From positions 1-64,000 of IMG/VR virus record IMGVR_UViG_3300046662_000041: a stretch of 64,000 nt of DNA. One strand, given 5' to 3'. Positions 12,604 to 53,628 of the stretch are shown here, one piece after another. The notes under the pieces are model-generated. The model ran no database searches. It was not told the origin of the DNA and worked only from the letters and a program-made list of their open reading frames with translations. The number at the start of each line of letters is the position of its first letter. The stretch's first letter is position 1. Origin of the DNA: a virus (lineage: Duplodnaviria; Caudoviricetes). A program made the translations under genes and the position numbers.

Positions 12604-13680
12604 CTATTTTCCTTGCATCTTTTGGTTGACGCGCAGGAGCCCGCCAACCGTTGCTGGCCACTCAAGACCTGTATCAAAAGCACTTGGAGGCGCACTGTGC
12701 GAGATAATATGCAAGGCCTCTGCAGCTTTCATACTTCCGTGCTTGATCACCTGATTCTTCAAGAGAGCAGCGACGATCGCCCTGATTCCGCGTGCAGCTT
12801 CCGGCCGCCCACCTGTCGAGTCATCCTTATCGACAAGCTCTTCACCTTCGGCGGTATCACCGGGCTCATCACTCTTTTTCTTGAAGGCTTCTTCAAGCTC
12901 GGCCAGGAGCGTTTTGACGGCTTTGCACGGCTGGCCCCACACGTTGCCATCCTTGTCCCATGACCCAGCCACCACAGCTTTTGCGATCTCGAAGTGATTC
13001 GAAGAATACGTCTGGAGCTGGCTGTTGATTGCATCCTTGTAGTCCATGCCATTATGATAATTCTCGAAGGCATTAAGCAAAGGCCGCGGCTGATCCAGGT
13101 GCTGGCGGATAGCCTCTGATTCGAACTCGATGAATTCGCCGTGCCCCAGATGTGCGGCGGCACGCTGCAATAGGTCGTGGATATTCTTCTTATTCATCCT
13201 GCCAAGGTGAAACACCTGGCACCGTGACACCAGCGCAGGCAGGATCTTGTTGGTCTCAGTCGTGCAGATGATCCAAAGGGTCGCCGAGTTGGCGGCCTCG
13301 AAAGGTTTCAGCAGGACGTTTTGGGCATCTTTCGTGATCTGATGGGCTTCATCCAGGATGATCACACGATACTTGCCACGCATCGGATACGTGTTGGTTT
13401 CGTCAACGAGGTTGCGGATATCCTCGATCTTGCGGCAATGCGCGGCATTAAGCTCGATCCCGTCCGGCTCTTCATCAGCAGGAAAGTCCCAACCCTGGAC
13501 TGCCCGTGCAATAATCTTGGCTAGGGTGGTCTTTCCTGTGCCTGGCGGGCCGACAAACATCAACGCACGTGGCACTTCACCCTTGTCCAGTTTCGTTTGC
13601 AACGTCTTGACGACGTCATCGTGTCCGATGATCTCATCAAACTTTGATGGCCGGAGCGTGATACCGAGCTGAGAATCCAT
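12604..13680 (-). CDS. clamp-loader AAA+ ATPase (DnaX/RFC-like)
   Basis: RPSKFDEIIGH, GPPGTGKTT, ILDEAH, SRC motif; AGGAG RBS before ATG 13680. Confidence 0.9.
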   Translation of the reverse strand: MDSQLGITLRPSKFDEIIGHDDVVKTLQTKLDKGEVPRALMFVGPPGTGKTTLAKIIARAVQGWDFPADEEPDGIELNAAHCRKIEDIRNLVDETNTYPMRGKYRVIILDEAHQITKDAQNVLLKPFEAANSATLWIICTTETNKILPALVSRCQVFHLGRMNKKNIHDLLQRAAAHLGHGEFIEFESEAIRQHLDQPRPLLNAFENYHNGMDYKDAINSQLQTYSSNHFEIAKAVVAGSWDKDGNVWGQPCKAVKTLLAELEEAFKKKSDEPGDTAEGEELVDKDDSTGGRPEAARGIRAIVAALLKNQVIKHGSMKAAEALHIISHSAPPSAFDTGLEWPATVGGLLRVNQKMQGK

Positions 13681-13773
13681 TCGATGATCTCCTGGGAAAG
13701 TAGTCGTGGGCTGCGGACAAGTGTTGGTCTCGACAACACTCCTGCTAAGGAAGTTCACAGCCCACGAATTCGG

Positions 13774-14446: not shown

Positions 14447-14489
14447 AGCATATCCCATATCCCGTTTTCATGCAATAGTACTTTCGTAC
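14447..14489 (-). promoter_or_regulatory. GTAC-box promoter, copy 1
   Basis: GTACGAAAGTAC-TA-TTGCAT-N17-TATGCT. Confidence 0.75.
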
Positions 14490-15970
14490 TGAATTGCAGT
14501 GTCTGATGCGTAGGCACGTGGCTGATCCTTGACATCCTCGTTGGAGTATTCTTGCCACTTAAGATTCGGCGGATCGATCGCCTGCTCCAAGATCTCTTCA
14601 TCAAAGTGCACACCGCGGCGTTGCCAGTGCCGGGTAACATGATCTGCAAGCTTGACATCTGCTCGGATCGCTTCCTGGCCAAACCAGTATGCACCGGCTT
14701 CCAAAGAACAGACTTCTGGCTGGGCTTCATCGTGACCGGCTTCAGCCTTCCCGCAAAGCTCGCAAAGTGGCACTGCAACTTCGTCGAAGTCGAAGGGCGG
14801 CGGATCATATTTGAATTTATGGTTACTGGCCGGCCGATCCTTACTTCGGCACTCGATGCTGAACTTGTCATCGTGAATACAAGCAAGCTTACCGTGAATG
14901 CAATTAAACTGTTTCCAACCGTCAACCTTCTGGCGCGTCTGCATCTGCTGGCCATCGAAGTATCGATAACCACAATTCTGTGCTGCCCAAAGCCACCCTG
15001 TACTGTCCACAGAGAAGAAGGGATACGCCTCCATCATCTCCTGACTCGAGATGCCCAGGCCATGAATTCGCCAGCGCTCCCACTCATTCATTCCGCCCTT
15101 TCGAGCCATGTCACGTAAGATGCAAAAGCATTTATCCAGCCACACCATCTTAACGTCGACACGAGAGCCGTCGACCTTCGGTGCAAGGCAGAGGCGCTCG
15201 CCCACATTCACTTCCTCAGCTAACTTCACAAGCCATTTGAAATCATCACCACGATGGAAGGTCGGGATACATGGCACGCCTGCGGCTTCCATCTCTTTCC
15301 AGTTGCGATAGCCTTGATCGCAAGCGACCTCGAGCTCGCTTGGTGTCGGATATTTAGGAGGAGTTGCAGTCACGTCAGCATAAGAGCCAGCAATGACGTC
15401 TAGGCCGATAAACTCGATCTGGCAGACGGCCTTCTCTTGCATCTGCTTTGCGTAGGAAATATAATCCTTGAGGTCAATTGGCTTGCCTTGACGCCAGGCC
15501 GTAAAAGCACCAGAATCAATCAAGAGGTGATATTCAAATTGCTTTGTAGCGAAGTCCTCGGCCAATTGTTGTGCGCCTTTGTGGGCATTGGTGCACAGGA
15601 GATTGTGCTCTCCTGTTTCCTCACAGACCTCGCGCTGCAGGTCAGGGCCCCAATTGCCTGCGATGAAAAGCTTCATATCGTCTTTGCGGTCCCTTGTGGA
15701 GAAGTGATCTGCCGTCATCTTAGACGTGTTGTGACCAAATGAGCAAAGGATATTTTGTACGCCACCTGCACGCGATGACTTCCAGAGATCGTCACCGTTG
15801 CCGAGCCCCGCTACGAAAAGCTCCATTCGCTCTTTCCCTTCGGCCAGGATTCGTGCTGTCTCACGTGCATTGCTCCAACCCGCTGAAAGCAGGACATGGG
15901 CGGCACCGGACGCGTAAAGTTGCTTCCGCTGCCCGATGCCACCTAATGATCCTGCGATAAATAGTCTCAT
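14468..15970 (-). CDS. DpdA/TGT-like 7-deazaguanine transglycosylase
   Basis: LIDSGAFTAW, GLDVI, PTFHRGD, IHGLG, PFFSVDSTGW TGT-barrel motifs; downstream of folE/queE/queD. Confidence 0.75.
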   Translation of the reverse strand: MRLFIAGSLGGIGQRKQLYASGAAHVLLSAGWSNARETARILAEGKERMELFVAGLGNGDDLWKSSRAGGVQNILCSFGHNTSKMTADHFSTRDRKDDMKLFIAGNWGPDLQREVCEETGEHNLLCTNAHKGAQQLAEDFATKQFEYHLLIDSGAFTAWRQGKPIDLKDYISYAKQMQEKAVCQIEFIGLDVIAGSYADVTATPPKYPTPSELEVACDQGYRNWKEMEAAGVPCIPTFHRGDDFKWLVKLAEEVNVGERLCLAPKVDGSRVDVKMVWLDKCFCILRDMARKGGMNEWERWRIHGLGISSQEMMEAYPFFSVDSTGWLWAAQNCGYRYFDGQQMQTRQKVDGWKQFNCIHGKLACIHDDKFSIECRSKDRPASNHKFKYDPPPFDFDEVAVPLCELCGKAEAGHDEAQPEVCSLEAGAYWFGQEAIRADVKLADHVTRHWQRRGVHFDEEILEQAIDPPNLKWQEYSNEDVKDQPRAYASDTAIQYESTIA

Positions 15971-16375
15971 TCGAAGATTGGCGGCTGGAGGCCTGAACTC
16001 AGAACATTTCGCTCATAGGCACTGAAGTCACTCGGGAAACGAGATATAGTTGCAATGCCTCGTTTGATCAGCATGAGTGGAAAGTCAGGACCGTGTATGA
16101 CGGCGTTGGCCGTCTTCGAACACGACGCCTGAAGGAAGCGTATGAGGATCCAAGCCATTGATACCAAATCTTGTTTCCCAACGACACGCCAACTTGTTTC
16201 GTAGCTGCAGGACGAATCCCTGCAGGAAGAGGCTTGGCAGATATTGCTTCTCAACCAGTACAACGTGCCTGGCCTTTGAGCCCAAAGTAGACCCCGATAT
16301 CGGGGCCTACCTTGAGCAAGTGTTCCATCAGCTTAGGGCTAATCCGGTTAACGCGAGGAGCAGACTCGTGAAACA

Positions 16376-16763: not shown

Positions 16764-17339
16764 TTAGTCTCTTATCAGAGACATAAATTCTTGACGCGCT
16801 GAATCACTATCTTTGAAAGCTCCTCGCAATGCACTGGTCACCATCGAACTACCGTGTTTATTTGCTCCTCTCATACACATGCATAGGTGTTGAGCTTCAA
16901 TCACGACACCGACTGCGACGGGTCCCAAATGCTCAACGAGTGCATCAGCGATTTCATTCGTTAGCTTCTCCTGAATTTGCAATCGCCTGGCGAAACAGTC
17001 CACCAGCCGCGCAAGTTTTGAGAGTCCTACGACTCGCTCTCCTGGAATATATCCGACATGAGCCTTACCTCTAAAGGGCAACACGTGATGTTCACAGACA
17101 CTAGAAAAGTCGATATTTTTGCACAGCACTATCTCATCAACTTTGAAACCTTCTTGATCAAACTGCCGAGCGAGAATAGCAGCCGGATCCTGTGCATAAC
17201 CCGCGTACAATTCGGCCCAGCTCTTAACGACGCGTTTGGGTGTATCCACCAGCCCTGGCCGCAATTCATTAGCTGGCTCGATCAACAAAAGCATTCGACG
17301 AATCAATTCTTCGGCTACTGCCTGTTCAAACGAAACCAA
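16764..17339 (-). CDS. folE: GTP cyclohydrolase I
   Basis: [37 protein letters not shown]. Confidence 0.97.
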
Positions 17340-17354
17340 GTTGCCCTCGATTCC

Positions 17355-18149
17355 TTAGCGGAAAAGTAGATATTTGTGGAGTTGTGGCATCACACGGAAG
17401 CGCGAGCCGGATCGCTCCATCACAAGCCGCGTCAATGCGGCGAGGTCTTGCGAATATGTGTGCTCATTCATCGGCACGGTCCTGATCGAGATAGGCTCGC
17501 CAGGTACCGACCGGTCGGCAGTGTTGACGATACAACCGCGATCATAAGGCTGAAAGAAAATTCGCTCATCGGGAATCAATGAGTGACCGTTGCGCTTCCA
17601 GCTATCAATCTTGGCTTGGAATTCAAACACACGGTCTGCATCTTCCTTGATGAAGGGGTCCAGCACGTACTTGATCTGACACTTGTCTGCCGTGAGAGCG
17701 ATATTCTCATAACAGGTCTGCCAGGAGAATTTCTCGTCGCGGCCAAGTGTCCCGACCTTTGGAGAGAAGCTAAACAGGTCAAGGCGATGGGCCAGATCCA
17801 TATTTCGAATCGGCACTGCAGCATTGCTCTCAACCGTCATTGTATAACAGTCGGACAAGATCGACACAAGGCTTGCCAGCATATTCTGCCACAATAGCGG
17901 CTCACCACCTGTGAAAACGATATGATGCGCTTTGTGACTGTTGATTCGATTCCTCACTTCCACGATCGGTATTTCTGACCACTCATCCCAGACCGTATCA
18001 CAACCTGGGCATTCAAGGTTACACATTCCGGTCCGGACAAAAGTACTGGGGACGCCGGAGTAGATGCCTTCGCCCTGCACCGTTTCCATTAGCTCGACCA
18101 GCTTAAAGAAGCCTGGACGAAGACGAATATCACTCTTATACTGCGGCAT
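17355..18149 (-). CDS. queE: 7-carboxy-7-deazaguanine synthase (radical SAM)
   Basis: QGEG, CNLECPGCDT (CxxxCxxC), TGGEP, SPK, PQLHK. Confidence 0.93.
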   Translation of the reverse strand: MPQYKSDIRLRPGFFKLVELMETVQGEGIYSGVPSTFVRTGMCNLECPGCDTVWDEWSEIPIVEVRNRINSHKAHHIVFTGGEPLLWQNMLASLVSILSDCYTMTVESNAAVPIRNMDLAHRLDLFSFSPKVGTLGRDEKFSWQTCYENIALTADKCQIKYVLDPFIKEDADRVFEFQAKIDSWKRNGHSLIPDERIFFQPYDRGCIVNTADRSVPGEPISIRTVPMNEHTYSQDLAALTRLVMERSGSRFRVMPQLHKYLLFR

Positions 18150-18421: not shown

Positions 18422-18826
18422 TCAAGGCTTCACCTCGGCCCAGCTTATGGGCGTTTCTTGCAGCCGGACCTTTGAGAGTGCCACACCATGTGCTGCAAAG
18501 GGTATGATCAGCAACTGCGCAAACAGTTGCACCAAATTCTCGGCCGTGGTGACGTTGTCGGTTTCGGGGTTAAGATTGAAGTACGGACGAAGCACAACGT
18601 TGAGATCCTGATGGTCGACCTTGTCGAGAATCGTTTCCTGCACAATATCTTTCAGGAAGTAATAATCTAGCACCATCGATTGGCCAGACGAGGGAGCAGT
18701 GATGGGATCGCCGGAGACCTCCACCTCAAGGATATAGGTGTGGCCGTGCGGCCTGGAGCACTTCCCATTATGGCGGCCCAAACGGTGTGCAGCATCAAAC
18801 GTAAATCTACGACCAATTGTAATCAT
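18422..18826 (-). CDS. queD: 6-carboxytetrahydropterin synthase
   Basis: FDAAHRL...CSRPHGHTY...DHQDLN...TAEN...ET. Confidence 0.95.
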   Translation of the reverse strand: MITIGRRFTFDAAHRLGRHNGKCSRPHGHTYILEVEVSGDPITAPSSGQSMVLDYYFLKDIVQETILDKVDHQDLNVVLRPYFNLNPETDNVTTAENLVQLFAQLLIIPFAAHGVALSKVRLQETPISWAEVKP

Positions 18827-21451: not shown

Positions 21452-21985
21452 TTATTTGCGTGTCCTCGTCTGATAGTACTCTGCTTCCAGCAGATGCAGA
21501 TTGCTCGGAAACGGCCCCGCCTTGAAGCGACCGCCAGTGATGAGCTCGATAGTCAGGTCGTACCGTTTCTGCAAGCCCTTCAATTCTGGCGTGGCTCGTG
21601 CAGGACTCGCGTTATCCAGGACATCTGCAATCTTCACGATCCGGCCGAGCGGATGCTCGTTACAACGCAGTGTGTAGTCACGATACGTTTCATTCTCTCG
21701 ACGGCTCACTGCATCGACTGCTTCACTGATTCTCAAACCGAAACAGCATTGGATATCTTCCAGCGTACGCCGTGTATCCTCGACAACATCATGCAAGACA
21801 CCGACGATCATATAGAGCGGATCAAGCGGCTCGAGTGCCAGCATGACGCGGAGTGAGTGGCCAATGTACATATGCCCTGTCTTATCAACCTGCCCGCGGT
21901 GGGCATTAGTCGCAAAGACAATCGCATCATTTATCAATTTGCTATTGTGGGCCTTCTCGATTTCGGTTTCGTACTGAGTCATCAT
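21452..21985 (-). CDS. HD-domain hydrolase, Mesh1/small-alarmone-hydrolase-like
   Basis: AH.GQVDK.G..YI.H, LHDVVEDT, VKIAD..DN. Confidence 0.8.
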   Translation of the reverse strand: MMTQYETEIEKAHNSKLINDAIVFATNAHRGQVDKTGHMYIGHSLRVMLALEPLDPLYMIVGVLHDVVEDTRRTLEDIQCCFGLRISEAVDAVSRRENETYRDYTLRCNEHPLGRIVKIADVLDNASPARATPELKGLQKRYDLTIELITGGRFKAGPFPSNLHLLEAEYYQTRTRK

Positions 21986-22326
21986 TCCTCCATTGAAGTT
22001 TCTAGGTCCTCGAAAAGGTCTGGTTGGAAGAAGCGCCTGATAATTTCCTTCGCAAGCTTGCCGTCGCTAGCCGGAATGTTTTGCAAAGCTAGCCGACTCT
22101 TCCATATACGGCCGGGCGGCGACTCGAGCACGAAAACCTTGTGCACGCAAATCGGGCCATAAAGCACACCATTGACCTCCCAGCCGCGCTTAAGATGCTT
22201 CCCACAGCGTGCACATCGGCCAGCCTTGTTGTCGACCGCGCGCGGTGAGGTGACTGCAACGTGCGGACGGTCATCAATCATGCGTACTTCTCCCATGATG
22301 GGAAGTGGCGAAGAAGCCACAACCAA
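21982..22326 (-). CDS. zinc-finger (CxxC...GPIC) hypothetical protein
   Basis: CARCGKHL...YGPIC; QPDLF near C-terminus. Confidence 0.55.
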   Translation of the reverse strand: MVVASSPLPIMGEVRMIDDRPHVAVTSPRAVDNKAGRCARCGKHLKRGWEVNGVLYGPICVHKVFVLESPPGRIWKSRLALQNIPASDGKLAKEIIRRFFQPDLFEDLETSMEE

Positions 22327-37368: not shown

Positions 37369-38077
37369 AGACGTCTGAGCGATAAGTGCCGGAGAATTCT
37401 TGTGCAAAAGCCAGGAAGATTGATTTCCGCTTCAGCCAGTCCGGCATCTCTTTTGGAAGCCCCAGCTTCCTCATTGCAATCTCCACACCTTCAACAAAAG
37501 TCTTTCGCTCGTCTGTAGTCAGAAATGCCCCGCCAAAGTCAAACCAAGCTCCCTTCGGCAACTCTCCGGGCACAAAATTGTATGTCTGGTGAGCAAGGGC
37601 ACGAATCTCGGTCACACCAATCTTCTCGTCTAGCGCCGCGGAAATCAGTTCTGCTGTGACTGGCTTGCCTGCTCGCTTCGCGGCAGCGGCAATTTCGTGT
37701 GCCTTCGTGATGCCCATCCGATCAAGCTCATCTTCAGTGAGATTTCCTTGACCGAAGATTTTCAGAAGCCGCTCGGCGACCCCAACATAAGAATAGAGCT
37801 GCTTCGAGCTGCGACCAAACTTCTCCTGAATCGAAATCAGATAACTGTTGAAACTGGTAAACCGGAGCTCGCGCCACACCTGATGGTGCTTGCAAGTAGC
37901 CAGAAGGGAGGCCAAGCGCGCGTAGCCTCGAGAAAGTTTATACTCTCCCTCAAGGACCGCAGCGACCTCCGCGTCAATGGCCGCATGCAGGACGACGGCA
38001 GATGCAGAAATCTCAACCGTAAGTGTATCAGGAGCCAAATGCTTATGCTGCTTTCTTCTCTTCGGCCTTCGCAGCAT
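37358..38077 (-). CDS. hypothetical DNA-binding-like protein
   Basis: WRELRFTSFNSYL...GITKA helical pattern. Confidence 0.55.
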   Translation of the reverse strand: MLRRPKRRKQHKHLAPDTLTVEISASAVVLHAAIDAEVAAVLEGEYKLSRGYARLASLLATCKHHQVWRELRFTSFNSYLISIQEKFGRSSKQLYSYVGVAERLLKIFGQGNLTEDELDRMGITKAHEIAAAAKRAGKPVTAELISAALDEKIGVTEIRALAHQTYNFVPGELPKGAWFDFGGAFLTTDERKTFVEGVEIAMRKLGLPKEMPDWLKRKSIFLAFAQEFSGTYRSDVYGS

Positions 38078-39161
38078 CCAACATAGGCATAATCAACTCT
38101 TGGTCCCCGGGCACCTTTGGATTGCTAAACTTCACCAGATGCTTTGCATCGATGAAGTCTATTGAGATGGGCCCGTCAATCTGACCGCTGGCATCCAGTA
38201 CATATTTCGGATTGATCTTCAATTTGATGGCCTCGCCTGTAACCGTGGCACCTTCCGGAGTATCTTCGGATTCTCCTGCAACGCTCGCACTTGAGAGTAC
38301 GAAACCGCTGCTGTCAGCAGTCATGTAGATCGCGGCATCATCACCCTCGCCGGCAACCACTTGTGTGATCGAGATTGATCGCTTGAAGTTATCCGTGGAC
38401 ACCGCAACATTGGTCTTAAAGGTGACGTTAAGCAGTGCACGCTCATAGGCAGGAAACTTGACAAGGCTCTTCCGGATCAGCAGTTTTTCTTTGCCGGTCG
38501 TCAGGAAAAGATTGGTTTCGGATTCGGTGAATTCAACATCCACGTCATCACCGGTCATTTCCTTGATGAGTGGAAATGCGTCCTTAACCAACATAATCTT
38601 GAAGGTCGGCAATGCATATGGCACGTCCGAGATCGCAATGCGGAAGCCATCGGTGGCAACGCCGCGGAGCTGAGTCCCGTTGCTCTCAAACTGGATGACC
38701 GGTTGTGCATACCGCCCCTCTTTCGAAGGGACAGCATGCTCGATCTTCCTAATCAACATTCGTAGCACGCTGAGCTTGATGTGGTACTTCCCTTCCGGTT
38801 TCGTCTCAGGAATCGGAAACTCTGCCACAGGAACCGTCGGCAGCTTCGCTTTGAACTTGCCGGATTTGAGATTCAGCACATTGCCATCTACGTCGATCGA
38901 AATGGTTTTGTCACTCGGCAAGAGGTCCAGAAATTCTTGAGTCCGCTTGGCGGGCAACAGGAAGGATCCAGTGCCCGTCGTAGTGACCACAACCGTCTGG
39001 ATGATGCTCATCCCTAGATCGCTTGCTGTGATTGTGGCGATCGACCCATTGACATCAATCTTGGCATAGCTAAGGACTGGAATGGTGACCTTCGCCTGCA
39101 CGACACCCAAGGCCTTCTTGAGCACGCCAGACAATTCCTTCACAGATAATTCAATTTTCAT
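38043..39161 (-). CDS. dnaN: sliding clamp (Pol III beta-like)
   Basis: TIPVLS, ASDL, VATDGFRI, FPAY, INPKY, IMPM; AAGGAG RBS before ATG 39161. Confidence 0.92.
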   Translation of the reverse strand: MKIELSVKELSGVLKKALGVVQAKVTIPVLSYAKIDVNGSIATITASDLGMSIIQTVVVTTTGTGSFLLPAKRTQEFLDLLPSDKTISIDVDGNVLNLKSGKFKAKLPTVPVAEFPIPETKPEGKYHIKLSVLRMLIRKIEHAVPSKEGRYAQPVIQFESNGTQLRGVATDGFRIAISDVPYALPTFKIMLVKDAFPLIKEMTGDDVDVEFTESETNLFLTTGKEKLLIRKSLVKFPAYERALLNVTFKTNVAVSTDNFKRSISITQVVAGEGDDAAIYMTADSSGFVLSSASVAGESEDTPEGATVTGEAIKLKINPKYVLDASGQIDGPISIDFIDAKHLVKFSNPKVPGDQELIMPMLDAAKAEEKKAA

Positions 39162-39185
39162 CTTTCTTCTCCTTGAGGATTCCGG

Positions 39186-39215
39186 ACTATAGACTGAATC
39201 TGGGCCCAAAGTCAA
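39186..39215 (-). promoter_or_regulatory. sigma70-type promoter for dnaN
   Basis: TTGACT-N18-TATAGT. Confidence 0.65.
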
Positions 39216-49954: not shown

Positions 49955-50410
49955 TTTCGGTGCAACGATTAGCGGTTCCTAGGAGCAATCCTTTTGATAC
50001 TGGGAAAGCAACTCCATCTCGCCAGGATAGGGAACACGCCGTCAGAATGCCTGGATGCATCGATTAACGCACGTAAATGTCCTATGGTCGCTCAACCGGA
50101 CACGGGTGCAAATCCCGTCGGCTCCACCAACTTGCTTCCGCGTCAGATGAGCCGAAACTACTCTACGGAGAGACGGTCGCTGGCGGGAGCAAGACTGCGG
50201 GGCCGAACTAGATTCGACGGGTGAGATCGATGGTAGGAAGCTCGTGCCGACAATGGCCACCGTCGCTAATCGTGGACCAAACAATAAAAGCGAAGCGAAT
50301 GCTCGCGAAGGTGATCGCGTTTGTCGAGGCTCCGGTGCGCTCATACGCCCCGGTCGCAGTGGCAGCGTAAATTGCCGGTGGAGGCTGCCCGAAAAGGTGG
50401 CCTCCGCACT
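49955..50410 (+). ncRNA. ssrA: circularly permuted (two-piece) tmRNA
   Basis: Acceptor piece ends CGGCTCCACCA at 50129; coding piece starts GGGGCCG at 50199; G3.U70 pair; helix 2 pairing, pseudoknot 1 and tag ORF 50290-50370; outer ends approximate. Confidence 0.92.
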
Positions 50411-50415
50411 TCTTG
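50378..50415 (+). terminator. terminator-like hairpin ending the tmRNA coding piece
   Basis: GTGGAGGCTGCC-CGAAAA-GGTGGCCTCCGC followed by ACTTCTT. Confidence 0.6.
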
Positions 50416-50434
50416 TCAAGTAAATACACAAAAC

Positions 50435-50463
50435 TTGACATAATGCTTGTGATTCTGGATGAT
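50435..50463 (+). promoter_or_regulatory. sigma70-type promoter of the nitrilase-polA operon
   Basis: TTGACA-N17-GATGAT; implies a leaderless start at ATG 50471. Confidence 0.6.
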
Positions 50464-50470
50464 CCCTCCT

Positions 50471-51541
50471 ATGCCTACCGTGAGAGTTGCTAGCTCCATC
50501 CCTCGACAGTTTTGGATGCAATCAGAGAAATTGGCTTGGCTCGACACCGCTATTGCAGCTAACTCTTGCGATCTGTTTCTAACATCGCAAGAATTCGTTG
50601 GCGGCGGTTCGTGTCAGGATTTGTGTCGCCGCAAAGGCTGGCAAACTGATGACGTGCCTGTGACTCCTGCCTGGCTTAGTGAGCATGTCGGCGGCCTCTG
50701 CCAGAAGCATAATGTCCACATCGGTTTCGGTGCCACCGTCAGCCGTGAAGGCATCAACACAGAAGATTATCTTTACTTCGATCCGACAGGAGAGCTGCTA
50801 GGATATCATTCAAAGATAGCACTTCCTGTCCAGGATAGCATCATCAATAATGGTGCATCACAGGTTACTCCGGAGACAAATTTCGAGCGGGCCACCAGCA
50901 TTGTCGAGATTCCAGCACTCGGCCTGCGCGTCGGCACCGTCTTCTGCTGGCAGATTTTCTTTTCCGATTTCTTCACAGAGGTCAAGCGCAACCGTCCCAA
51001 CCTGCTAGTCAACTGCATTAAATTTGCTCCACGAGCATGGTATCAGAAGGATGTGGACCCTGCAGGCCGAAATATACGGAGTGGTTTCTCGCAGGAGACA
51101 GGTAGTAGCAAGCCAGAAGACGATGCCCTCGGCTGGATTGACAAGCTCCGTTTCGAATCTCGGTACAAGGAATTCCCTATAGCAGTCACGTGCAATACGT
51201 GGTCAGCAGGGGCAAAATACCTGGCTCTGGTTGGCTGGGTGGATGAGGTCACGAAACACACGCACCTCGAGAATCTTCCGTCGGTGGCAGAAGCAGAACG
51301 CGTGATTGTGACGGAGTTCGATCCCAGCCTTTATGCCGAGCTTGAGCACTTGAGCTTGGGTGTATATGCGCGTTTCAAAGGCGATTGGGCAGCTTTAATG
51401 CAAGGCACAATGCGGCGAAAGGCTATCAGGATTGAGCAGCGTTGCCGGAGTGGTAAGACTGCCGAGCAGCTCGCCAAGTACCGTGCCAAACCGAAGCCAG
51501 CTAAATCTGTAGAGACACTTCAGCCAGGGATTTTTGACTAA
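50471..51541 (+). CDS. carbon-nitrogen hydrolase (nitrilase superfamily)
   Basis: CDLFLTSQEF (Glu), YFDPTGELLGYHSKI (Lys), RVGTVFCWQIFF (Cys) give the E-K-C triad pattern. Confidence 0.75.
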   Translation: MPTVRVASSIPRQFWMQSEKLAWLDTAIAANSCDLFLTSQEFVGGGSCQDLCRRKGWQTDDVPVTPAWLSEHVGGLCQKHNVHIGFGATVSREGINTEDYLYFDPTGELLGYHSKIALPVQDSIINNGASQVTPETNFERATSIVEIPALGLRVGTVFCWQIFFSDFFTEVKRNRPNLLVNCIKFAPRAWYQKDVDPAGRNIRSGFSQETGSSKPEDDALGWIDKLRFESRYKEFPIAVTCNTWSAGAKYLALVGWVDEVTKHTHLENLPSVAEAERVIVTEFDPSLYAELEHLSLGVYARFKGDWAALMQGTMRRKAIRIEQRCRSGKTAEQLAKYRAKPKPAKSVETLQPGIFD

Positions 51542-53628
51542 TGCCACAAGAAGCTTTCTTCTCCGCTAGTGAGATGGCCGAGATGTCTAGCGGTTTGTGT
51601 CCTCCTGCCCCTAAGGATTATCACCTCCCGACGTCATTCCCGTGTCTCATCAAAGCCGCACGCATCTGCTACGATATAGAGACCTTCGATCCAAACATTG
51701 GCAAGAAGGGCGCCGGCACCTACCGTAAGGATGGCAAGATCATCGGCGCAGCGATCGCGGCCTGGGACCATAACGACGTCTTGATGCATGCCGAGTATTA
51801 TCCTGTCGCCCATCGCAGCGGACCAAATCTTGATGAGGATAATGTCTTCAGTTACTTTGCAAACCAGATGGCTTTCTTCGAAGGCGAGCTGATCGGTACT
51901 AACTTACTGTATGATATGGACTGGAGCAGCTCCAAGAAAATCAAGGCTCCTTTTGCAAAATTTCGTGATGTCCAGTTTGCTGAAGCACTCATCGACGAGC
52001 TCGCCTTCAATTACAAGCTAGAGACGCTCAGCCAGAAGTATCTCGGTCACGGTAAAGTCAAAGATCATTTCGCTCTCTTGTACGGCCCTGACTACATTCA
52101 GCGCTTCCACGAAGTGCATCCTGGGCATGCCCGATTGTATGGACTCGGTGATGTCTTCCAGCCTAAAGAAATTCTTGACCTACAGTACCGTGAACTTGGC
52201 CGGCTCGGCATGCTAGATCTCTTCAATCTCGAGTGTCGGCTGATGCCACTGCTCTTGTATATGAAAGAGCAAGGCGTCCGTATCGATATGAAGCGGGCGA
52301 TGGAGATCAAGAACATCCTTGAGGAGAAACGTGCTGCGTGTTTGAAGGCTGCTTCCAAACTGGCTGGCGTTGAGCTCACGGTCGAAAATATGGGCAGTCC
52401 GAAGCTGCTAGCCTACATCTTTGAGAAACAGGGTATCATTATTGCCAAAGCCAAGAAGGGTGGCATCAGCATCACAGGCAAATGGCTGCATCATCTCTGT
52501 ATGTGCAAGAAGAAGGATGCCGAAGGAAACCTCATCGATAACCAGGATTGCGGCCACTTAGGCAGGCTGCTTGAATCTGCGAATAAGTATGACAAAGCAA
52601 AAGAAGTCTTTGTTGATAGTTACATGTTTGACTTCGCTGTAGATGGGCGGATCCATGCTGACTTCCACCCGTTGCGGAAGGCGGATGATGATGATGACTC
52701 TGGCACAGAGTCCGGCCGCTTCAGTTGCTCACATCCTAATCTTCAAAACATCCCGACAAGAGATGAAGAAATCGGACCGATGTGCCGCTCTTTGTTTATC
52801 CCCGAGGAAGGGGCAGAATGGTGGGCAATAGATTACTCACAGATTGAGTATCGCTTTCTGGCACATAGAGCACTTTGCTTGAAGCCACTTAAGGGTGACG
52901 GTGATCACGCGCGCCGCAGAAAAGCCGCAATCGAAGCAGCACAGTTAGTCAAAAAGATGTATGAAGAAGATCCAAATACAGACTTCCACGAAGCCGTCAA
53001 ACAGTTGACTGGTCTCAAGCGCAAGGATGCGAAAAACTTCAACTTCAGGCTAGTGTATGGCGGCGGCAAGGTCGGCGCTGCACAAGTCCTAGGCATGCTT
53101 GACAAGGAAGGAAAGCCAACCAAGGAATTTGAGGTTATTTGGGAGACGTATCATGGCAAGGCGCCTTTCATCAAGGAGCTGCTTGATGAGAGCATGGCAC
53201 AGGCGCAAAACGACGGCGAGGTCCGCACGATTCTTAATCGCCGCACTCAGTTCGAATTTTATGAACCGGCTGGCAAGCGTGTACAAAAAGGTGGCTCACT
53301 CCCTTTGGCTCAAGCGATCGAAAAATGGGGCTTCGATCTGCAGCGTGCCAATACCCATAAGGCACTTAACCGCGAACTGCAAGGATCCGCGGCAGATCTT
53401 ATTAAGATGGCGCTTGCTTTGGCTTGGGAGCAAGGTGTCTTTACATCGACAAAAGACTTCACGATTGCTCTGCAGGTCCATGATGAAGGTGATGGAAGCA
53501 AATTTCCAACCAAGCGCGGCGAAGAATGCTATCAAGAACTGAAGCACACAATGGAGAATGCATTGGTCTTGAACGTGCCAATAAAAGCTGAAGGTGGAAT
53601 AGGAAAGAATTGGGCAGAAGCGAAGTAA
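51541..53628 (+). CDS. polA: family A DNA polymerase with 3'-5' exonuclease
   Basis: YDIET, NLLYD, GRFSCSHPNLQNIP, DYSQIEYR, K..NF...YG, QGSAAD, QVHDE. Confidence 0.96.
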   Translation: MPQEAFFSASEMAEMSSGLCPPAPKDYHLPTSFPCLIKAARICYDIETFDPNIGKKGAGTYRKDGKIIGAAIAAWDHNDVLMHAEYYPVAHRSGPNLDEDNVFSYFANQMAFFEGELIGTNLLYDMDWSSSKKIKAPFAKFRDVQFAEALIDELAFNYKLETLSQKYLGHGKVKDHFALLYGPDYIQRFHEVHPGHARLYGLGDVFQPKEILDLQYRELGRLGMLDLFNLECRLMPLLLYMKEQGVRIDMKRAMEIKNILEEKRAACLKAASKLAGVELTVENMGSPKLLAYIFEKQGIIIAKAKKGGISITGKWLHHLCMCKKKDAEGNLIDNQDCGHLGRLLESANKYDKAKEVFVDSYMFDFAVDGRIHADFHPLRKADDDDDSGTESGRFSCSHPNLQNIPTRDEEIGPMCRSLFIPEEGAEWWAIDYSQIEYRFLAHRALCLKPLKGDGDHARRRKAAIEAAQLVKKMYEEDPNTDFHEAVKQLTGLKRKDAKNFNFRLVYGGGKVGAAQVLGMLDKEGKPTKEFEVIWETYHGKAPFIKELLDESMAQAQNDGEVRTILNRRTQFEFYEPAGKRVQKGGSLPLAQAIEKWGFDLQRANTHKALNRELQGSAADLIKMALALAWEQGVFTSTKDFTIALQVHDEGDGSKFPTKRGEECYQELKHTMENALVLNVPIKAEGGIGKNWAEAK

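Follow-up and report, generated by a model that had tools for sequence, protein, structure and literature searches.

What does an enzyme of the nitrilase fold do in a bacterial virus, where its gene runs directly into that of a family A DNA polymerase? The locus that raises this question lies in the virus record IMGVR_UViG_3300046662_000041 (Duplodnaviria; Caudoviricetes), and the window analysed here is a stretch of 64,000 nucleotides, the first 64 kb of this linear record of 92,923 bp, which is estimated to be 83% complete. The initial annotation of the locus had described a C-N hydrolase coupled to polA, with motifs resembling beta-clamp-binding peptides on both proteins, and had proposed a clamp-tethered enzyme that processes a 7-deazaguanine derivative. 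The analysis reported here points in the same general direction. Its best explanation, to which a probability of about 0.55 is given, is that a catalytically competent enzyme from an isolated branch of the nitrilase superfamily works together with the phage DpdA, a DpdA-like DNA guanine transglycosylase, in the 7-deazaguanine modification of DNA and acts on a cyano or amido side chain.

Phage DNA is known to contain eight different 7-deazaguanine bases, and the route and the final base in the cassettes without QueC are given as open in PMC10516641. The family described below is a concrete candidate for a missing step, being a cysteine hydrolase that partners DpdA, or is fused to it, in the place where related cassettes carry QueC. 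Such an enzyme could also serve as a tool for the conversion of nitrile- or amide-bearing deazapurines in DNA. In a literature search that paired nitrilase or C-N hydrolase with deazaguanine or preQ0, no paper was found that describes such an enzyme or a nitrilase-fold partner of DpdA.

Fold, catalytic residues and family of the hydrolase

The open frame of the hydrolase covers positions 50459-51541 (+) and encodes 360 amino acids, or 356 from the ATG at 50471, a start that agrees with the N-termini of the homologs (M-x-x-VRVAT); residue numbers are counted from 50459. The match of the protein to PF00795 is marginal, with 23.3 bits against a gathering cut-off of 23.2, and the scores of two homologs are 40.9 bits (P0003) and 29.5 bits (the open reading frame, ORF, of locus L016). 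A model calculated with AlphaFold2 (AF2) from 24 homologs has a predicted local distance difference test (pLDDT) score of 88.6 and a predicted template modelling (pTM) score of 0.88. A Foldseek search of the PDB with this model returned nitrilases and cyanide dihydratases as the top matches (E 7e-15, probability 1.0), and VIA-align comparison with the superfamily gave Z 24-25 over ~260 aligned residues with a root-mean-square deviation of 3.5-4. The alpha-beta-beta-alpha sandwich fold of the nitrilase superfamily, as predicted by the model, is secure despite the marginal Pfam score.

The catalytic triad consists of E45 (codon at 50591-50593), K119 (50813-50815) and C163 (50945-50947, within the sequence FCWQ). 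All three residues are invariant in the 24 homologs and are kept in 24 of 25 more distant members, in which the surrounding sequences read PQE..GG, K.ALP.YD and FCWE. The model and the alignment bear out the C-N hydrolase with an E-K-C triad that had been read from the window, and the protein is a genuine enzyme of the nitrilase superfamily that is probably active.

The structurally similar branch-1 nitrilases and cyanide dihydratases (PDB 8uxu, 9odt, 3wuy, 8c5i; Z up to 25.1) share with it the fold, the triad, the FCW(E/Q) sequence and a helical C-terminal extension. The sequence identity is only 11-14%, however, and the phage family differs in an Asp at the position of the second catalytic Glu, in a basic linker that ends in a docking-like peptide and in having DpdA as a genomic partner. 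Structure does not separate the nitrilase, amidase and carbamoylase branches, since the scores of all branches of the superfamily tie at Z 24-25, within 1 Z unit of each other.

The family is small. A profile search run exhaustively over 1.84 billion representative proteins turned up 49 members and linked no ordinary nitrilases to them at E <= 0.001, while a word-indexed search gave 47 family proteins, nearly all of them metagenomic. There was no match to the hydrolase by tblastn in 50,697 phage records and none in PHROGs; the hydrolase profile gave one match at chance level among PDB sequences (E 0.83), and a search of BFVD yielded a single generic phage C-N hydrolase. By these searches the enzyme belongs to a small, isolated branch of the nitrilase superfamily.

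Some members are considerably longer than the window protein. No recognisable domain was found in the long N-terminal extensions of P0003, P0035, P0050 and P0051. P0050, a metagenomic protein of 706 residues, also has all three catalytic residues replaced (PAGF, SHSA and FVWQ at the corresponding sites) and is probably a non-catalytic derivative, judging from these substitutions.

Association with DpdA and the 7-deazaguanine cassette

The genomic surroundings of the family were followed in 14 distinct retrievable loci with a hydrolase relative, each of which was compared with every phage ORF by tblastn. The hydrolase gene lies beside a DpdA-like gene in seven other contigs; QueD and QueE are also adjacent in four, and FolE is present where the contig reaches that far. 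The gene order DpdA - hydrolase - QueD - QueE - FolE is found in L002 and L003/L014, while shorter contigs preserve DpdA - hydrolase - QueD - QueE (L008), hydrolase - QueD - QueE (L012) or DpdA - hydrolase (L013), so that QueD and QueE adjoin the hydrolase in all of these loci except L013. A DpdA homolog stands immediately beside the hydrolase also in L004 and L007, once on each side.

In two proteins, P0049 (704 amino acids) and P0057 (627 amino acids), the two enzymes are fused, DpdA forming the N-terminal part and the hydrolase the C-terminal part. Their identity to the window enzyme is only 38% and 27%, respectively, which indicates that the fusions are independent of each other. A further apparent fusion, an ORF of 630 amino acids in L002, was rejected as an artefact, since its DpdA match lies in another frame.

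The adjacency to DpdA recurs among members that are 27-60% identical, in both gene orders and in addition to the two fusions. The co-occurrence with deazaguanine genes expected from the initial annotation is therefore seen in both synteny and fusions, and the homologs are not found mainly in phages without such genes. Together with the QueD, QueE and FolE neighbours, the association with DpdA lends strong support to an enzyme of 7-deazaguanine chemistry, and the hydrolase very probably belongs to the 7-deazaguanine DNA-modification pathway, as judged from gene context.

The window itself encodes a DpdA-like protein, FolE, a QueE-like enzyme and QueD in one cluster (Table 1). The DpdA-like protein is 26-29% identical to annotated DpdA of the 9g-related phages JenP1, SE1 and slur01. 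It carries an N-terminal extension of ~120 residues (15600-15970, minus strand), which contains three copies of a segment M(R/E/K)LF(I/V)AG; in L008 and L013 the N-terminal end of DpdA carries repeated (V/I)RLA segments.

The hydrolase gene lies ~35 kb away from the dpdA cluster in this phage. No DpdA was found inside the retrieved stretch of L005 or in the 7.4 kb upstream of the gene in L006, where the gene is at the contig end. These observations would be expected if the protein had no role in DNA modification, being instead a general amidase or nitrilase of an auxiliary metabolic or detoxifying kind, or a counter-defence amidase acting on the deazaguanine-protein conjugates of QueC-like defence. 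Defence systems of the QueC family that conjugate deazaguanine to proteins do exist, according to published abstracts. Such an unrelated function is nevertheless highly improbable in view of the recurrent DpdA neighbourhood at low identity, its occurrence in both orders and the two fusions, as well as of the tiny size of the family and its lack of a link to metabolic nitrilases.

The only cellular genome with a family member is that of a Candidatus Acidoferrales metagenome-assembled genome (MAG), where the gene is split into two frames (L016, 9539-11024 of the contig) and adjoins a phage-type integrase and a RepB primase. With these neighbours the gene probably belongs to an integrated element. 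QueC in the same genome is normal, and the DpdA profile finds no match there. This single cellular member hints at soil Acidobacteriota as possible hosts.

The predicted substrate and the place of QueC

The route formed by FolE, QueD and QueE ends at 7-carboxy-7-deazaguanine (CDG), and only QueC makes the amide (7-amido-7-deazaguanine, ADG) or the nitrile (preQ0). A hydrolase with a Cys-Glu-Lys triad is unable to act on a carboxylate, and to amidate one it would need an activation step. Since preQ0 is the sole nitrile and ADG the sole primary amide of the series, hydrolysis of a 7-cyano or 7-amido group is the most likely task of the enzyme, and the odds that one of these side chains is its substrate are regarded as even.

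In the proposed reaction, C163 would attack preQ0 at its 7-cyano group or ADG at its 7-carboxamide, and hydrolysis would yield ADG or CDG. The nitrile would be supplied by the host QueC from CDG made by the phage, and the phage DNA would then carry dADG or uniform dCDG and not dPreQ0. The enzyme may act on or beside DNA, as suggested by the DpdA fusions, by the basic tails and by the terminal Q-x-x-(I/L/F)-F peptide. Of the two sites named in the initial annotation, the replication fork and the nucleotide pool, the latter is without support.

The nearest functional analogue is DpdC, a protein of the DUF328 family. As described in the DpdC sections of PMC10164549 and PMC5699537, it follows DpdA and turns the nitrile of dPreQ0, within DNA, into the amide dADG, for which it needs no ATP. 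DpdC, a precedent for the proposed reaction, is unrelated in family: the Pfam scan of the window protein (E <= 1) gives PF00795 only and no DUF328. It comes from a restriction-modification island of bacteria, and those sections mention no clamp-binding tail on it. DpdC produces an amide; the phage enzyme may instead yield the acid.

No match to the QueC family PF06508 is present in the 92.9-kb record, and QueC was likewise not found in G001 and G002, two further virus records with the hydrolase. Of 48 virus records outside this set that encode a related DpdA, QueC is present in 28 and the hydrolase in none. The contrast between 0 of 3 hydrolase records and 28 of 48 others is suggestive and not significant (hypergeometric p ~0.09).

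QueC, QueC* and Gat-QueC sit at the corresponding point of the cassette, beside DpdA, QueD, QueE and FolE, and deal with the same 7-substituent as acid, amide or nitrile (PMC6884629, PMC10516641). QueC belongs to the PP-loop enzymes and uses ATP to form the nitrile. The hydrolase lacks a nucleotide-binding domain, and from its fold the reaction is predicted to run the other way, towards hydrolysis. The DpdL/DpdA3 systems (Cellulophaga phage phiST, dDG; PMC10516641) similarly combine FolE, QueD, QueE and DpdA without QueC and have one extra enzyme that decides the base. That enzyme, DpdL, is a QueD paralog with the motif LxxxHRHxF. The only gene of the PTPS family in the record has the true QueD motif CxxxHGH, by the distinction between the two motifs drawn in the corresponding part of PMC10516641, which indicates that the record has no DpdL. 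The DpdA of this phage is closest to those of the 9g-related coliphages, which fall into class DpdA1 of the literature and not DpdA3.

Several observations weigh against the hydrolytic assignment. Seven residues downstream of the Lys, where a second catalytic Glu would be expected, the homologs have an invariant Asp, D126, which aligns with the Glu of a cyanide-degrading enzyme; most of the distant members likewise have Asp, and the substitution is, by the alignment, a family-specific variant. The clade of the phage itself has FCWQ (CWQ) in place of the FCWE of the wider family, and CWE is the hallmark of true (branch-1) nitrilases. The tie between the structural branches has the same bearing. 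A hydrolytic enzyme would also have no obvious task if the phage makes only CDG, so that the model requires a host QueC. Finally, all three records in which QueC was not found are incomplete, with completeness values of 83%, 66% and 32%.

The enzyme might alternatively make a nitrogen function. It could be a glutaminase supplying ammonia, likened to the nitrilase-type domain of glutamine-dependent NAD synthetase, or it could transfer the 7-substituent from a Cys-thioimidate or thioester to ammonia or an amine, with a dG+-like amidine or an N-substituted amide, possibly an undescribed base, as the product. Glutaminase domains and the acyltransferase Lnt are indeed found within the nitrilase superfamily, and QueF-L forms G+ from preQ0 via a Cys-thioimide. 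The handling of water could be changed by the unusual Asp in place of the second Glu, a fusion with DpdA suits channelling, and the hydrolase fills the slot where related cassettes carry QueC or Gat-QueC (PMC6884629, PMC10516641). No ATP-using or activating enzyme (PP-loop, ATP-grasp or other) is recognisable in the cassettes, however, and without one the CDG carboxylate could not be amidated; no acceptor-binding domain is evident, and the best Foldseek matches are hydrolytic nitrilases. The synthesis of a nitrogen function is therefore considered quite unlikely, and hydrolysis of the 7-cyano or 7-amido side chain is the preferred reading.

The polA junction, the terminal peptides and the sliding clamp

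Table 1. Positions of the hydrolase-polA junction, the deazaguanine genes and the clamp-related genes in the window
Feature	Position	Strand	Basis
Nitrilase-fold (C-N hydrolase) enzyme	50471..51541	+	ORF, Pfam, AF2 model, homolog alignment
C-terminal peptide TLQPGIFD (clamp-binding-like Q-x-x-I-F)	51515..51538	+	End of basic low-confidence linker
TAATG, hydrolase stop / polA start overlap	51539..51543	+	Stop TAA 51539-51541 overlaps ATG 51541-51543 in gacTAATGcca
Family A DNA polymerase (PolA), 695 amino acids	51541..53628	+	PF00476 E 1.8e-52
Promoter-like site TTGACA-17-GATGAT	50435..50463	+	Consensus match only
DpdA-like DNA guanine transglycosylase	14468..15970	-	DSGAF motif; phrog_887 E 4e-32; no match to Pfam TGT
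Small TTG-start ORF, doubtful gene	15967..16263	-	Stop overlaps dpdA start (ATGA); ends GLQPPIFE
FolE (GTP cyclohydrolase I)	16764..17339	-	PF01227 E 1.6e-66
QueE-like radical SAM enzyme (CDG synthase)	17355..18149	-	QueE PHROG E 1.2e-31
QueD	18422..18826	-	PF01242 E 4.4e-29; CxxxHGH motif (CSRPHGH)
DnaN (beta sliding clamp)	38043..39215	-	Phage-encoded; proposed docking hub
Clamp-loader ATPase	12604..13758	-	Phage-encoded

The stop codon of the hydrolase overlaps the start codon of polA, and this TAATG junction is read as translational coupling of the two genes. The overlap and the PF00476 match bear out the coupled ORFs of the initial annotation, which had further described a two-gene plus-strand operon with its own promoter. 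The coupled pair stands; the two-gene operon with its own promoter is less secure: the pair closes a longer plus-strand block (47.6-53.6 kb), and promoter-like sites occur five times in the region against a mean of 4.1 after shuffling, with no excess.

The coupling to polA is real in this phage and is not a property of the whole family. A polA gene stands beside the hydrolase in none of the 14 retrievable relatives, and G001 and G002 have no family A polymerase. The closest hydrolase homologs, P0001 (74% identity) and P0013 (63%), come from contigs of 5153 and 4894 bp, and the contigs of the closest PolA homologs, P0116 and P0112, agree with these exactly in size and source, which places hydrolase and polA within ~2 kb of each other on these short contigs. 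The same agreement between hydrolase and PolA is seen for contigs of 11021, 24806, 44370, 69631 and 73879 bp, so that the two genes occur in common genomes within the lineage of the phage, and homologs of DnaN, PolA and the hydrolase occur on contigs of identical size (60386, 44370, 5153 and 4894 bp and others). Adjacency to polA thus seems limited to the closest relatives of the phage; it counts against this point that in those relatives the adjacency is deduced solely from contigs of equal size. The simplest history is that in this lineage the gene left the dpdA cluster and came to lie at polA, while distant relatives keep the dpdA neighbourhood.

The two terminal motifs noted initially, the QPGIFD at the end of the hydrolase and the MPQEAFF at the beginning of PolA, are both read in the sequence, and the phage does encode its own DnaN along with a clamp loader. 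The first ~35 residues of PolA (51541-51650), beginning with MPQEAFFS (51541-51564), are conserved: the pattern (Q)xx[FLM]F[ST]..E.A..SGG..PPAPK.Y.LP is kept in >60 metagenomic homologs (P0110-P0179). On the strength of this conservation the N-terminus of PolA is a functional element, not necessarily a clamp motif, and it could dock on a clamp or on a helicase.

The last 50 residues of the hydrolase family consist of a conserved basic helix (..MRRKA.RIE..), a variable and usually basic linker and a short terminal peptide. In the AF2 model of the window enzyme the last 20 residues show a pLDDT that drops to 73 and then to 51. Of the 60 members that reach the C-terminus, 13 have the strict pattern Q-x-x-[ILMFVW]-F within their last 14 residues; when these tails were shuffled 2000 times, the count averaged 0.35 and never exceeded 4. 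A looser tail pattern is found in 22 of the 60. The motif occurs even in very distant members, with the endings ..NNQYKLF (the fusion P0057), ..GQLLLFDGGN and ..NQGRLFD... Many other tails, such as ..SSLFDNF, ..SFFDDF and ..PIFDFDF, resemble the C-terminus KKASLFDMFDF of RB69 gp43, as read from the phage record. The C-terminal peptide of the RB69 polymerase binds the gp45 clamp. DnaN homologs P0096 and P0097 lie on contigs equal in size to those of the hydrolases P0005 and P0002, both of which have tails with the strict motif.

The tail of the hydrolase behaves like a docking peptide, for which the clamp of the phage is plausibly the most economical hub. The bacterial QL(S/D)LF motifs and the tail of the RB69/T4 polymerase are similarly short Q-x-x-(I/L/F)-F or S-L-F-D-x-F peptides placed at the extreme terminus after a flexible linker; here the putative clamp-binding peptide is carried by a base-modifying enzyme and not by a polymerase, a ligase or a repair protein. 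The enzyme would be held on the phage DnaN beside PolA, which has its own N-terminal QxxFF, and modification would follow the fork. If the tail does bind the clamp, this would be a bacterial-virus case of a clamp-tethered base-modifying enzyme, like DNMT1 on PCNA, and would help to explain how a post-replicative transglycosylase system keeps pace with replication.

A sizeable subgroup (L002, L003, L008, L012, L013 and P0049) counts against such tethering, as its tail is basic, with a net charge of +8 to +9, and free of the motif; the tail of the window enzyme could also bind PolA, DpdA or a partner of the SSB type instead. The tethering of the hydrolase to the clamp, which these tail comparisons suggest, is put at somewhat less than even odds. 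The tails of L002, L003, L008, L012 and L013 share the sequence RLEAQLIGG.TR.DC.LKAAT..RQK.S followed by a basic run, and this conserved basic tail may be an element that binds DNA or DpdA.

The nature of the tail also bears on a possible action of the enzyme on the free-base pool, where it would turn preQ0 and ADG of the host into CDG, leave DpdA a single substrate and maybe starve the queuosine synthesis of host tRNA; the C-terminal tail would then serve oligomerisation or another partner rather than the clamp. In the nitrilase family the normal substrates are small molecules, and C-terminal extensions typically take part in oligomer contacts. The end of the FolE-QueD-QueE route at CDG fits such a role, as does the ability of phage DpdA enzymes to insert CDG when preQ0 is absent, which is described in the part of PMC10516641 on these enzymes. 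On the other hand, a motif at the very end of a variable and poorly ordered linker is of the docking-peptide type and not an oligomer interface, the strongly basic tails of the other subgroup suggest contact with nucleic acid, and the gene stands in replication contexts (polA, clamp loader). Action on the pool is therefore held to be unlikely, and an enzyme that acts with DpdA on or beside DNA is preferred.

Among the 133 ORFs of the phage, four have a terminal strict motif, where ~0.8 would be expected: the hydrolase, PolA, an ORF at 21982-22326 and the TTG-start ORF that precedes dpdA. The last of these, with 98 codons, ends in a tail that closely resembles that of the hydrolase (GLQPPIFE and TLQPGIFD). 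The 21-base tails of the two differ at 8 of 21 positions, and most of these are third positions of codons, a pattern that speaks against duplication in the recent past; the ORF was rejected as a decayed copy of the hydrolase, with no profile similarity beyond the seven-residue tail. Its odd composition and the lack of homologs make it a lead and not a result; it may encode a short adaptor peptide, or it may not be a gene.

A more elaborate arrangement, a clamp "toolbelt" in which PolA (QxxFF), the hydrolase (QPGIFD) and an adaptor coupled to DpdA (QPPIFE) would all dock on DnaN, is doubtful. The hydrolase would then convert the inserted 7-deazaguanine on nascent DNA to a base that is undescribed or made by an undescribed route; dCDG or dADG formed by nitrile hydrolysis in DNA, or an amidine or N-substituted amide formed via a thioimidate, would be examples.

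The product of the ORF at 21982-22326 (minus strand) is a protein of 114 amino acids with Cys pairs of the zinc-module type and the sequence QPDLFE near its acidic C-terminus. The hydrolase start is immediately preceded by a permuted (two-piece) tmRNA gene, which is matched by Rfam RF04321 at 50069-50370 with 91.9 bits and placed by ARAGORN at 50037-50461 (+); its predicted tag is unusually long and ends in VAVAA, and the gene is followed downstream by a hairpin and then by the promoter-like site.

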